From Chrysomallon squamiferum (Eukaryota; Animalia; Mollusca), in contig CM022673.1 of assembly GCA_012295275.1 (NCBI GenBank), positions 17,546,001-17,610,000 on the forward strand: a stretch of DNA of 64,000 nucleotides, read 5' to 3'. Each line of letters starts with the position of its first letter. Position 1 is the first letter of the stretch. The notes below the pieces were generated by a model. It was not told where the DNA came from and searched no databases. It worked only from the letters and a program-made list of their open reading frames with translations. The translations under genes were made by a program, and so were the position numbers. Below, piece by piece: positions 18,405 through 24,400 of this stretch.

Positions 18405-21400
18405 TCAGTATTTAGTTTGTTGTGAGACTGCCTGCACACACTTTGCCATCGTCTGTGATGCTCGTGAAATCGAATCAGTCATGTAAAAATCTTTGAGAGT
18501 AAGCTGTGGTGGAGTTAGAGGGTCGCTCAGCAACGGAGTTTTAACAAGCTGAAAATAAATACATGGGTGCTAATATACACTGATCCAGGAACAAAGAAAT
18601 AAATGAAACGAAATAGTAAAATCAGTGAATGAATAATAATTTAAATTTTGTTTTTAATAAATATATAAAATAATGAATTAATGATTGTAAATTCAGAAAT
18701 TATGATATAAAAGAAATAAAAGTGAAAAAAACCCATGAAGAATCCAAACCCATCTATCAATCAATGTAAATATACTGCTTACAAAAATAAAAATATAAAA
18801 TAGTTACCTGAGCGAGTTCCTGCGCTTGTTTGAAATAATTAGCTTCCTCCACATCTCCAATTCGAGCCAAGTTTGGTGCAACCTCGCCTAACCTCCTCCT
18901 AACCTCATCTAGTTTTTCATATGGAAGAGTCACACCAGCAATCTGTTACAAAACATTAATATAGTTTTATTAAATGTTTTCAAAAATAAACAAAACCCAT
19001 AAACTGAATCCATTTTCAGTTTATAAAATCCATAACAGTAAATATGAAAGATATTTCATTTAGTGATTTACTTGTTAATTAAGATTTTCTTGTGCTATAA
19101 AAAATTACATAATAATGATAATAATAAAGTGACTTAGATGATCATAATAGTAAATAATTAAATAACAAAAAGAATATAAAAAGAATATAAACTGTAATAA
19201 TATTTACTGCTGTGATTTTAACCTAAAATGTCACTTGTAATGTTTCCCTCTATTTACCTGTTAAATTTAAACAGCTGTAATACAAACCATCTTAACTGAA
19301 CTAACAGACACAACAATCACTGTTAATATATAGATATGTATCATGTAAACTATGACAAATGTTATGTTTTTTAAATTTGTGTACCTCGGACAAGGCTCTG
19401 ATGATTTTCCAGTCTACCCGGGCCAGACCGGGTGGGGTTACTGCAGTGCGGGTGAGTTGAGCTCTACCCTCTGTGTTCACATATGTGACATCCTTCTCTG
19501 TGTAAGCAGCTCCGGGTAAAATAACATCAGCCATCTGAGCCCCTAGATCTCCATGGTGACCTAATCAAAATTTACAGTTGTCATTATTTATTGAATTAAA
19601 TAAACATGATGAATTATTTTAAATTGTGCTAGTCTACTGTAATAACAAAGTTAAAATAAATCACTGAAATCATTTTATATATCACAGTAAAATTCTTTTT
19701 TTATTTTATTTTATTATAAACAATTTTATTTATTTCTGTTTTGTTTTTTAACTACATTAGGAAGGAAAAACAAAGAATAGAATAAAAACAATGACTTTTA
19801 TCATAGGTATTTAACCAGATGTTTGATCTTTAGTTGTTGTTTTTTTAAATATTTCACTTCTAAATGGAGGCACTAACACCAAATCAAGTCTATTGTTAAG
19901 AGTTTTCCCAACACAGACCTTGATAAACAATGAAGCAGTCTTTAGGCAGACTTTCTCTAGTGACTGCACCCTCGTCAGCTCCCAGGAGGAACAACACTTT
20001 GGGTGGGTTGTCTCTGATGTAGTCAACACCTGCCTTGTAGCCGAGATCAAGAGCTGCAACCTGGCTAGCAACCTTGAGAAAAAACATTAAAAGATAAAAT
20101 TAACAAAAATTATCATAGAACTTTTTAAAAAATATTTGTGGTTAAAATAATTAGAAATAAACACTAAATTAATAATAAAATTGAATCATTAAAATTAAAA
20201 TAATAAAATTTTAAAATAAATAAAGTGAATAGGAAAGTACATTTAATAATAATGTACAAAAATAAATAACAAATTTACCAAAGAAAATGATGATCTACAT
20301 TGAAATATTTTGTGATCTGTTTGAGGTGGAACGAAAAATTCTGTTACAACTTCACAGATTTCCAGATTTCCTCACATTTCTTTAGGAAAGCATATGACAA
20401 CAGCAAAACACTGCTCTGTTTAATTGTGTTCATGTATTCCATGTTATAATTATCAATTTAAATTATTCAGATTTATTCCCTTAAGGCTGAAAAGAACTCT
20501 AAAATTTTACTTCATCTATTAAATATTTTTTTGATTGAAATATTAGCTATTTCAGTTAATATATTATCTGATTCACATTAATAAACAAATTATTATACGG
20601 GACTTTCTTCAACATTCTCACATCAATTGTCTAGAATTGCTAAACATTCATTCTAACGTCACTGATCAAATGATACACCTCTACCTCCAGTACCAAGCAA
20701 ACACACTAAAAAACTCTGAACTACCCACTCTATGTAAAATGTTGAGAACTCTCCAGTCCTCTCCTGTGCCACATGTCACCCTTGTCTTCTGTGCAAGAGT
20801 TGAGACAGCGCTGTGAACAGCAGCAGCATCTTTACGCTGCAGGATAGCACTTCCCACAACTATCATAGGTTTCTTTGCTGCATTCAAAACCTAGAGACAC
20901 AACGAAAAATTCTATAATAATGTCAAATATACAATAAAAGGAGAATGATGTATCTAGATTAAAACACAATTTTGAAAAACCATTTTTATAAACCAAATTT
21001 AAAAAACATTCACTAAACTATTTGAATAAATTTTATATTTTAGGTACTGGTCTGTTTGAGGTGGAACGAAAAATTCTGTTACAACTTAACAGATTTCCAG
21101 ATTTCCTCACATTTCTCTAGGAAAGCATATGACAACAGTAAAACACCTCTCTGTTTGACTGTGTTCATGTATTCCATAATTTTTTTTATGCTGAGTTTTA
21201 CGTTGCAATTTATTATAATCAAATTGATTGACCTTTCAATAAATATTCATTCATTATCCTTTAAAAACAATAATATTAAAATAAAATTAAAAAAATAATA
21301 TAAACTGCATGTACCTTGCAGAAAGGATGTTTCCCACTAGCAAGATCTTGTAATGTGGATGTTGTGTCTCCAAGATGCTGAATAAAAAATTTTAAAAAGA

Positions 21401-24400
21401 AAAGAAGATAATTATTTAAATGTGTTAGGTTTCAAATAAATTATTCAGTTTTTTTAAAAATTTAATGTAGAGACAAAAACTGATTTATTATTTTTTTAGA
21501 AGTTGAAACAATTTTGATTTACAAATTACAGTACAAATAAATAAAATTACTAAAAGTAAATGTATTAAAATATGCACATATTCACTCTTTATAAACTTGC
21601 AGATTTATATATAAAATAATACATGTAAACGAAAAATAAAATGTTAATAAAATAAATTACACCGTATCAGCAAAACCTACTTCATAATCATAAGTCAAAT
21701 CCACTTTTGAACCAACAAGACCAACTTGTAAGTCATTGTGAATCCAGCTGAAATTTTAATTCAGACATTTATTAACAAAATTATTTTTCATATCCATTTC
21801 AGAAGCTTGGATAAAACATATTTTCTGAGAATATAAAGGCCTATTCGTTCTGGTTGACAGTTCTGTCTTGTATAAATTTACAGAATTTACCAAGCCTTAA
21901 TACCTTTAGTCATCATGTCTTAATAAATAAATTAATTAAAGAAAGGGTGTGTTTAATTTTTTGTTATCATTTACATTTCGAACCAGTATGAAGAAGAAAA
22001 TATTGACAGAAATTTTGAATAATAATATCTACATTAACATAAAAATAAACTTTGTTTCCACTCCAGTCTCAGTATGTTTTTATGTGGGTGTGTGCATATT
22101 ACTATATTACTTAAAAGAAAACATTAAATACCTCTTTCTTATTCTAGCATTGAACAGTGGTGCTTCGAAACGTGGATTGGTTCCTATCAACAGCAGAACA
22201 TCAGCTTCTTCAACTCCTGCTATTTTAGTGTTCAATAAATAGTTTGACCTCAGGTCAGTTCTAAAATTACAGAGAAAATATCAACACAATAAATAACACA
22301 TTTTATATTCAAAAACAAAAATAGGTGGCAACTATTATATGATAGAAAAGATAACAAACAAAATTGTAACAATAACAGATGTATTTGTTTAATGTGTAAA
22401 AACCAAATTAAATATAATTTTTATAAGAAAAACAGCATATTTTTAAAAAAAAAAAATATTTACTTATTATTTTCAGTAGAAGAAAAAGAAAATGTAATAA
22501 TTGCAATTTTGACACAGCATGAAGTTTAAACCAGAAATAAAATAATATTATTAACAGTACTGAAATTATCTGTTTGGGGTGGAACGAAAAATTCTGTTAC
22601 AACTCAACAGATTTCCAGATTTCCTCACATTTCTCTAGGAAAGCGTATGACAACAGTAAAACACCTCTCTGTTTAACTGTGTTCATGTATTCCATGTAAC
22701 AATTTTCCACAACAAAAGCAATATAAATATTCATAAATTATTTTAAAATAATAGTTAAATATAAAGATGAATATGAAAAAAATGAAACAAACACAGAAAT
22801 CAGAGTTAAAAATCTGGAAAGGGCAGGAATATTTCCCAGAGAAAACAATAATTTTGTCTTCAGATGACAAGTAAATGAGAAGGCCATAACATGTATTTTG
22901 ATAAGAATTTTAAAAAATGTGAGAAAGATAAATAAAAACGTATATCAACAAATGTTTAGGAAAAACAAAACAAAAAATCTAAAAAAAATTAAAAAGAGGG
23001 AAAAAACCTTACAAGCAAGAATGTGATAAAATTACTATTATCATGGCTGTTAGTTGGGACGTTTGTCAGGTGTGACTATTTACTTACCCTGCTCCATCCA
23101 TCGGAAAGATTTCTTCTGTACACAGTGCCTCACTGCCCAGTCGGTTGATGAAATCTTTCATAGCAACCAGAGCCTCTGCATCAACCAGACCACCAGCCAC
23201 AGCAGCTACCTTATCTCCAGAAACATCTCCCAGCTGTACAACAAATAAATATCACTTAAAACATTTTATATTAACATTTATATAGGCCATTATCTTTAGA
23301 CAACATCAAGAATTTTGTTTATATATTTATACAAATGATTATATAAGTCAGACATGGGCAACTTTTTCAAGCAGCAAGCCATTTGAGAACATGGCTCATG
23401 ATCAAGTGGGCTGTACTACTAATAAACATTATTTTCTTTGTGAAATTAGATATGCCATTCAGAAAGCTCTGTGAATTTGCTCATGACTGATCTAATCCTT
23501 TTGCAGATTATGTTAGCAACATTTTGCCTCTTTTTTAAAATTATTATTTTAAAACTGAAATATTATAAATTAAAACTTAAAAATGTACCTTCTGAGCGAC
23601 TGCAATGAGTGCACTTTCCCAGTCAGTCTGGACAAGTTGGCCTTTGCTGTCCTTGATAAATGGAGAAGTCAATCTCTGCCTCTTCAAACCATCATATGCA
23701 AACCTTGTCTTGTCTGAGATCCACTCCTCATTAATGTCCTTAAAAAAATAAAACAAATCAAAAATTAAATTTATAACATATTTACCATTTATGTCAAGCC
23801 ATTTATGTTAATCTAAATATACTATGAAATAAATGTGTACTAATATTATTTAACAAATTTATGAAGCTAAATTATACTATTACAAAACACAGATTACCAA
23901 AATAGGTTTGAAAAGCAAATGGTGACAGAAAATTCTAGATATTCCACTGATTTAAAATTCAAGCAAAGAAAATTTAAGACATTTCACATTTTTAATGACC
24001 AACTTTTGGGGATTTCTTATGAAATTTTAATGACAACCCCGATCTAAATTATTATTTTTTAAATATATATAGATGAAAAAACAACAACAGTATTTAACAA
24101 ACATTAATTATATTTAAATAAGGAAAGTAAACAGTGCCTACCTCATTCAGCCTGGGTAAGATTCTCATCACCTCATTCGTTTTCATAGACACAACAATGT
24201 TACTTCCCAAAGCATCCATCACATCAACACTTTCAATTTTTCTGTAAATTAAACAAGTTTTATTAATCTTGATACAGAACATTAAATAAATAATAAAATA
24301 CATTAAAGACAAAAAGACAGCACAGAGAAATTAATTTGACAAAATTCATGATTTTGTGTTAATAAAATAAATAAATAAAAATGACTAAAAACTCACTTAG

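Follow-up and report, generated by a model that had tools for sequence, protein, structure and literature searches.

Three intronic copies of a likely SCARNA3-type H/ACA guide RNA, predicted to target U40 of U6, in NDUFS1 of Chrysomallon squamiferum

Why should one short element occur three times, each time in a different intron, within a gene for a mitochondrial complex I subunit? The locus lies in a 64,000-nucleotide (nt) stretch of contig CM022673.1 of the mollusc Chrysomallon squamiferum (GenBank assembly GCA_012295275.1, positions 17,546,001 to 17,610,000), hereafter the window, and the host gene is NDUFS1. A sequence-only reading of the window had taken the element for a box H/ACA small Cajal body-specific RNA (scaRNA) that guides pseudouridylation of U40 in U6 small nuclear RNA (snRNA), multiplied by intron-to-intron duplication. 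The present analysis leads to a graded answer: the three elements are very likely copies of a SCARNA3/HBI-100-type H/ACA guide, predicted from sequence to direct pseudouridylation of U6 U40, and the triplicated guide is probably functional in this animal. All coordinates are those of the window, and intron numbers count coding exons.

The repeated element and its box H/ACA layout

The features on which the argument rests are the following.

18405-27133 (-): NDUFS1 (complex I 75 kDa subunit), 19 coding exons, 725 amino acids
20315-20442 (-): copy A, NDUFS1 intron 15; Rfam SCARNA3 37.8 bits, E 2.8e-4
Copy A parts (-): H box 20378-20383; pocket strands 20363-20366 and 20327-20334; loop GAAG 20350-20353; ACA 20318-20320
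21050-21177 (-): copy B, NDUFS1 intron 14 (20891-21314); Rfam SCARNA3 36.0 bits, E 8e-4
Copy B parts (-): H box 21113-21118; pocket strands 21098-21101 and 21062-21069; loop UAAG 21085-21088; ACA 21053-21055
22568-22695 (-): copy C, NDUFS1 intron 11 (22261-23087); Rfam SCARNA3 29.9 bits, E 0.023
Copy C parts (-): H box 22631-22636; pocket strands 22616-22619 and 22580-22587; loop UGAG 22603-22606; ACA 22571-22573

From 27133 down to 18405, NDUFS1 reads as a stop-free frame of 725 amino acids across GT-AG introns. Translations of its exons match the Pfam domains Fer4_Nqo3 and Molybdopterin and the mitochondrial 75 kDa subunit in PDB (best 117.7 bits). The introns that carry copies C, B and A (11, 14 and 15) rank 1st, 5th and 2nd of 18 by length, and the copies sit 159-307 nt from the 3' splice site. 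RNA contigs from two runs of one study (X8 and X9) cover five splice joints across 20070-23088 and skip all three element introns at CT..AC joints. The exon map and the spliced contigs bear out the host-sense placement in three NDUFS1 introns that had been proposed, and the elements are intron-encoded, host-sense and located in spliced introns, as is looked for in an H/ACA RNA.

The copies, each 128 nt long and found exactly at the predicted positions, align without gaps at 120/128 (A/B), 119/128 (A/C) and 123/128 (B/C) identical columns (93-96%). Eleven columns vary across the three copies, none of them in the antisense strands or on a fixed box letter. With the copies held in register, identity per 10 columns is 8-10 inside the element, where one of the windows so counted extends two bases beyond the 3' end, and 0-4 outside, which corresponds to the sharp and identical boundaries of the sequence-only reading. 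A blastn search for further copies, run within the 64-kb window, found only A, B and C, all on one strand and host-sense. A covariance model (R1), run over the window with filters off, gave 147-151 bits for the three copies, which fit their own model by construction, and 15.7 bits for the next match; its RNAalifold structure differed from the H/ACA fold, and the model served as a sequence profile only. A whole-window repeat search was dominated by microsatellites.

In all three copies an H box, AAAGAA or AGAGAA, occupies element positions 60-65, and an ACA at 123-125 is followed by 3 nt; as claimed, the H box varies only at an N position of ANANNA. For copies A and B, and for the consensus of all three, folding gives a hairpin (3-58), a free hinge with ANANNA at 60-65, a second hairpin (69-121) and the ACA; in the consensus the tail is free as well. 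Copy B is the best folder, at -31.3 kcal/mol. The two-hairpin box H/ACA layout of the three elements is thus supported. The UGAGG..CCUCA 3' hairpin that had been described stands as a layout, though copy C reads CCCCA instead of CCUCA, which leaves A71 and C119 mismatched in the lower 3' stem. Copy A is mismatched at two stem pairs, A19-C40 and G90-A98; at its position 90 an RNA contig has U, not G, which would restore the pair (depth 2.1; this may be an error). When the 18 introns of NDUFS1, together with five intron stretches of the neighbouring gene EEF1B, were screened crudely for a hairpin-H-hairpin-ACA order, introns 14, 11 and 15 came out on top within NDUFS1.

Predicted pairing with U6 and relation to SCARNA3

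The pocket of the 3' hairpin consists of UCUG (77-80) and UCGUUCCA (109-116), is invariant in all copies and lies 14 nt from the ACA, all of which had been noted before. The U6 used for pairing (L002, 107 nt, 117.9 bits) comes from another organism than the window and is one of 15 U6 loci (L002-L016) that a motif scan of genome contigs returned, all confirmed by Rfam. In each copy UCGUUCCA pairs with U6 32-39 and UCUG with U6 42-45, leaving U40-A41 free, and the target U is position 40 of the L002 U6. All 8+4 pairs are Watson-Crick, so that the claimed pairing around U40-A41 is reproduced on the U6 of another organism, and the distance of 14 agrees, for that U6, with the 14-16 nt that separate the target U from the H or ACA box in a bipartite pocket. 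When only Watson-Crick pairs were counted, 0/5000 dinucleotide shuffles of U6 reached 12 pairs. The target motif occurs in each of the 13 full-length U6 genes examined, as the construction of the scan dictates. In A and B the pocket opens at a cost of 2.8 kcal/mol, in C at 5.0, and the 8-bp arm alone gives -10.6; the constrained, pocket-open fold of copy C is still non-canonical. A second UCUG (85-88) also fits U6 and was rejected as a pocket because it forms part of the upper stem.

The U6 loci are eukaryotic genes on contigs of prokaryote metagenome-assembled genomes (MAGs), several amid tRNA clusters and one (L010) beside U4, and evidently represent eukaryotic contamination of those bins. 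No U2 was found in five U6-bearing MAGs (0/5); small-subunit rRNA matches in the five were taken as bacterial 16S and left unused. U6 and 18S motif scans of viral contigs gave 0 matches.

The known human U6-40 guides are ACA12 and HBI-100 (PMC3884663), and scaRNA3 and scaRNA23 show yeast-verified activity on U6-U40, their sole listed target (PMC6984369 supplement); the two papers bear out the guides ACA12/SCARNA23 and HBI-100/SCARNA3 named by the sequence-only reading. Guides for pseudouridine 40 of U6 (U6-psi40) have been verified in yeast for human, Xenopus and Drosophila (PMC6984369 supplement; PMC3884663), and go unmentioned in PMC1687206.

When the copies were compared with 4227 Rfam families in E-value mode, SCARNA3 (RF00565, clan CL00018) was the top family on all three, over model positions 1-141. 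Rfam thus arrived independently at the HBI-100 family for all three copies, though below its gathering cut-off of 47 bits. Over the whole window and both strands, SCARNA3 matches only the copies (E 0.0011, 0.003 and 0.087). The Rfam alignment puts UCUG and UCGUUCC of the elements on the consensus pocket and also matches letters independent of the target, namely 5' UGGAA, the UUCCUA that precedes the H box and UG..CA of the lower stem. By eye, the chicken SCARNA3 (PMC2770669 Table 2) and the copies have TGGAA, TTCCTAGAG and a 5' apex AAACA..TGTTTT in common. Such letters would fit homology to SCARNA3, which is likelier than mere convergence on a common target.

The elements thus resemble SCARNA3/HBI-100 in their two hairpins, in the UCUG and UCGUUCC pocket 14 nt from ACA, in the AG of the 3' loop, in the 5' UGGAA and UUCCUA, and in their clustered multiple copies. 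Xenopus tropicalis has five scaRNA3 copies, three of them within about 4 kb (chr5:136,497,152, 136,500,456 and 136,501,035) and the other two on an unplaced scaffold (PMC6984369). The elements differ from SCARNA3 in length (128 nt; the model has 141 positions), in a 5' arm of 4 bp in place of 6 (consensus UCUCUG) and in a 3' arm of 8 bp in place of 7. The host differs as well. The SNORD51/SNORA41 cluster, which we take to mark the EEF1B2-NDUFS1 locus, offers a comparison. This cluster is on human chr2 and Xenopus chr9 (PMC6984369 supplement), whereas human scaRNA3 is on chr1 and Xenopus scaRNA3 on chr5; chicken SCARNA3 is recorded as intergenic (PMC2770669). SCARNA23/ACA12 belongs to the same class and has the same target, U6-psi40 (PMC7960923, PMC6984369), but it is the best Rfam match of no copy, and human SCARNA23 lies on chrX (PMC6984369). 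By description the elements also resemble Drosophila pugU6-40, an invertebrate, intron-derived H/ACA RNA with U6-40 as target and a Cajal body (CAB) box, a scaRNA for which WDR79 co-immunoprecipitation, Cajal-body fluorescence in situ hybridization and the yeast assay were positive (PMC3884663).

Homologues, duplication and competing explanations

Two runs of one sample (X10 and X11, organism B) contain a homologue. A contig matches element positions 2-125 (124 nt) with 17 differences (86% identity), and the X10 contig spans exactly 2-125, stopping at the ACA. Three host exons differ from organism B at 30/163, 17/109 and 7/69 positions, and the introns match in short AT-rich pieces only; the element therefore appears about as conserved as the exons. 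At ~24-25x the element contig is deeper than the exon contigs (12.5-16.4x); in X10 the two depths are 24.8 and 12.5-15.5. This suggests some two copies collapsed into one contig, depth being no copy number. Another organism B contig spans NDUFS1 intron 11 with 376 other letters, so the matched copy is not in that intron there. Among the 11 differences that could be located, the fixed As of the H box and UCUG are untouched and two fall on N positions of that box. The loop AG survives, with changes at positions 89, 90, 91 and 94.

A metagenome scan using a pattern with 28 fixed bases returned one match, L001:2418-2550 (-). Of the two homologues, L001 alone shows the whole pocket, but most of it and the 5' letters common with SCARNA3 were imposed by the pattern and so were not counted as evidence of homology. 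Beyond the pattern, L001 shows the eighth antisense base, an upper stem that differs from that of the copies yet pairs, and UGAG at the loop register of copy C. Its pocket forms 8+5 pairs (one G-U) around U6 U40, and its SCARNA3 match is weak (22.6 bits, E 0.21). A second copy lies 1.7 kb downstream (707-839 (-), 45 bits with the covariance model). Its 3' antisense strand is altered at two positions and its pocket damaged, and the copy looks decayed. L001 is an AT-rich contig in which tblastn found no NDUFS1 exon and 0/8 frames scored above the Pfam cut-off.

Both organism B and L001 keep the H box and the loop AG. The AG of a putative CAB box, which had been claimed for the apical loops, is present in the 3' loop of A, B and C; the full UGAG occurs in copy C, alone among the three, and in both L001 copies, and only AG in A, B and organism B. 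In the predicted fold the first one or two CAB-box letters pair at the top of the stem. Classification as a scaRNA would rest on this partial CAB box.

The flanks bear on how the copies arose. Two stretches upstream of the copies resemble each other:

21239-21305 (-): upstream intron flank of copy B, resembling that of copy C
22723-22792 (-): upstream intron flank of copy C, resembling that of copy B

They align at 54/72 columns with a score of 49, which was reached by 0/2000 random intron pairs and 0/300 shuffles. The flanks had been called unrelated; this holds for five of the six flank pairs, which are at background, and fails for the AT-rich B/C upstream pair of about 70 nt. The similarity is likely a remnant of DNA-level duplication, and it favours such duplication in cis over precise insertion of an RNA copy. 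The proposal of intron-to-intron duplication within NDUFS1 gains support from this remnant. Cis-duplication of small nucleolar RNAs (snoRNAs) between introns of one host has been described (PMC2653536, PMC8178906), as has their movement among introns and genes over time (PMC6984369). Like cis-duplicated snoRNA paralogues, the copies occupy different introns of one host and keep sequence and structure. Human H/ACA families more often reach other hosts by retrotransposition (PMC8178906); the pattern here is instead the cis pattern described for non-mammalian vertebrates. The copies are more alike within the species (93-96%) than to organism B (86%), which fits duplication after the split and gene conversion equally.

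Several results weigh against functional guides of the SCARNA3 type. Only one RNA contig, of 161 nt from X8 at depth 2.1, overlaps an element; it continues for 46 nt after the predicted 3' end and thus represents pre-mRNA or DNA, not mature RNA. The RNA data are assembled contigs of long-RNA libraries, uninformative on RNA ends or levels; that X9 leaves the elements uncovered and X8 covers them thinly is evidence in neither direction. Folding z-scores are weak (A -0.48, B -1.94, C -1.15) and the opposite strand folds equally well; the folding check yields the H/ACA fold for A, B and the consensus, but the minimum-energy fold of copy C is a different one. No compensatory change occurs among the three copies at the 38 predicted pairs (0/38), and four pairs are broken in one copy; the comparison covers few sequences, and among them the upper stem of L001 differs yet pairs. 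When G-U pairs were allowed, 109/3000 mononucleotide shuffles of U6 reached 12 pairs. All SCARNA3 scores (29.9-37.8 bits) lie below the gathering score, so the elements are filed as a likely distant homologue and not as a formal Rfam member. Rfam in gathering mode returned nothing at the three element sites, and the 5' half alone gave no SCARNA3 match, which means that the score comes mostly from the 3' half. In organism B, 6 of the 17 differences are unlocated; the changes at 39, 43, 89 and 90 break stem pairs unless unseen partners changed too, and both H-box changes would fall on N positions with a 1-in-5 probability by chance alone. Lastly, PMC1276797 reports no pseudouridine at the U6-40 equivalent of Caenorhabditis elegans, so psi40 is not universal in animals.

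The alternative that survives best is compatible with a SCARNA3-type guide: one or two of the copies may be decaying, copy B doing most of the work. This is possible, if doubtful. Copy C combines the lower-stem A-C mismatch with a predicted misfold, copy A has two mismatches and the lowest-magnitude z-score (-0.48), and the second L001 copy has lost its pocket. Against such decay, no copy has lost its pocket, its boxes or its full length, 0/11 variable columns touch antisense or fixed letters, and the U of the RNA contig at copy A position 90, if not an error at its depth of 2.1, repairs one of the mismatches.

It is quite improbable that the elements are a U6-U40 guide of independent origin, or one nearer to SCARNA23/ACA12, with the likeness of the pocket dictated by the common target. 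Antisense elements can switch between non-homologous guides (PMC6984369), and such an origin would suit the sub-threshold scores, the unmatched 5' half, an L001 5' hairpin that is barely alignable to the window copies, and a lower-scoring match to another family of the same clan in the Rfam search. Against it stand the target-independent letters (5' UGGAA, UUCCUA and lower-stem UG..CA) and those in common with chicken SCARNA3, as judged by eye.

An H/ACA RNA with another or an additional target (rRNA, U2, U5 or mRNA), engaged by the 3' or the 5' pocket, is very unlikely. The target scan covered U6 and the U3 of the window only, and Drosophila has dual guides for snRNA and 28S rRNA (PMC3884663). 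However, the 12-bp match to U6 lies at the canonical 14-nt distance. Structure prediction leaves the 5' hairpin without an open pocket, and over the 14 nt that precede its H box the window copies and L001 differ; this hairpin gave no good match to U6 or to the window U3, the best U6 match, 8 pairs with G-U, being at chance level.

Barely credible is a short non-autonomous mobile element resembling a miniature inverted-repeat transposable element or short interspersed element, or a neutral local duplication, with the boxes coincidental: sharp edges, 93-96% identity within the species, weak z-scores and a copy count confined to the 64-kb window would suit it, but, as the sequence-only reading had held, the ends and flanks show neither a terminal inverted repeat nor poly-A, and no target duplication that would convince (a copy's two flanks, compared over 25 nt each, have at most an AT-rich string of 4-6 bases in common), the three copies are all host-sense with no dispersed ones in the window, organism B conserves the element at exon level with about two copies suggested by depth, and SCARNA3 is the best Rfam family.

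If the elements are SCARNA3-type guides, established H/ACA biology suggests how they would work. Dyskerin, NOP10, NHP2 and NAF1 (GAR1 later) would bind the guide RNA on the NDUFS1 pre-mRNA; the guide would be freed once the intron is spliced out and debranched and exonucleases have trimmed the RNA to 3 nt beyond the ACA, and dyskerin would then isomerise U40 of U6. The AG of the 3' apical loop, acting as a CAB box, may bind WDR79/TCAB1 and concentrate the particle in Cajal bodies, while the 5' hairpin may be structural, without a target. The copies would have arisen by DNA-level intron-to-intron duplication and may have been kept alike by recent origin or gene conversion together with purifying selection, NDUFS1 being presumably a mere broadly expressed carrier.

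Guide, target and triplication all have precedents, and knowledge of the mechanism is unchanged; the NDUFS1 host and the animal lineage are apparently new for a U6-psi40 guide. In the literature searched, with most subscription journals and database annotations outside its scope, no description of NDUFS1 as a snoRNA or scaRNA host was found, in agreement with the sequence-only reading. If the assignment is true, the range of the U6-psi40 guide, beyond vertebrates and Drosophila, gains one more animal lineage, along with two additional sequences; NDUFS1 joins the sno/scaRNA hosts, which would matter for knockdown or editing of NDUFS1 in this lineage; and the locus offers a compact case of copy turnover between introns. 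Divergent members such as these escape the current Rfam model and could serve to widen it. A more far-reaching proposal is that NDUFS1 is a lineage-wide multi-copy host of the U6-psi40 guide, in which copies move between introns, are homogenised by gene conversion within each species and tie guide supply to NDUFS1 transcription and splicing. This is speculative and rather unlikely. If true, it would open a route from mitochondrial-gene regulation to U6 modification beside the ACAGAGA box; the bound guide would also cover the site of N6-methyladenosine 43 (m6A43), which is listed together with psi40 for U6 (PMC7960923).

Neighbouring gene and other features of the window

A probable non-coding first exon of NDUFS1 lies at about 27797-27880 (-) and ends at a GTAAG donor at 27796; if real, it raises all intron numbers by one. 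In NDUFS1 intron 4, 25446-25660 (-) appears by eye to consist of four degenerate tandem units of ~55 nt that include the acceptor context of exon 5.

Head-to-head with NDUFS1 lies the EEF1B (EF-1 beta) gene, 28637-31354 (+), with its start codon at 28715 and a pyrimidine tract at 28637-28649 that resembles a terminal oligopyrimidine (TOP)/TCT start. Its products match Pfam EF-1_beta_acid and EF1_GNE. The human genome presumably has the same EEF1B2/NDUFS1 adjacency, with EEF1B2 as host of SNORD51 and SNORA41. Rfam scans and the hairpin-box screen found no SNORD51/SNORA41-type snoRNA in the EEF1B introns here. One EEF1B intron candidate, 30617-30751, equalled the NDUFS1 introns in screen score and was rejected, as it overlaps a TG/TA microsatellite.

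Elsewhere in the window, 5238-5420 (-) matches U3 snoRNA at 63 bits (cut-off 34). Its 5' part and box D are off consensus, which would suit a divergent copy or a pseudogene. A GC-richer, coding-like stretch, 33523-33880 (-), lies beside long trinucleotide repeats; by eye, it may resemble the end of a fibrinogen-related domain.

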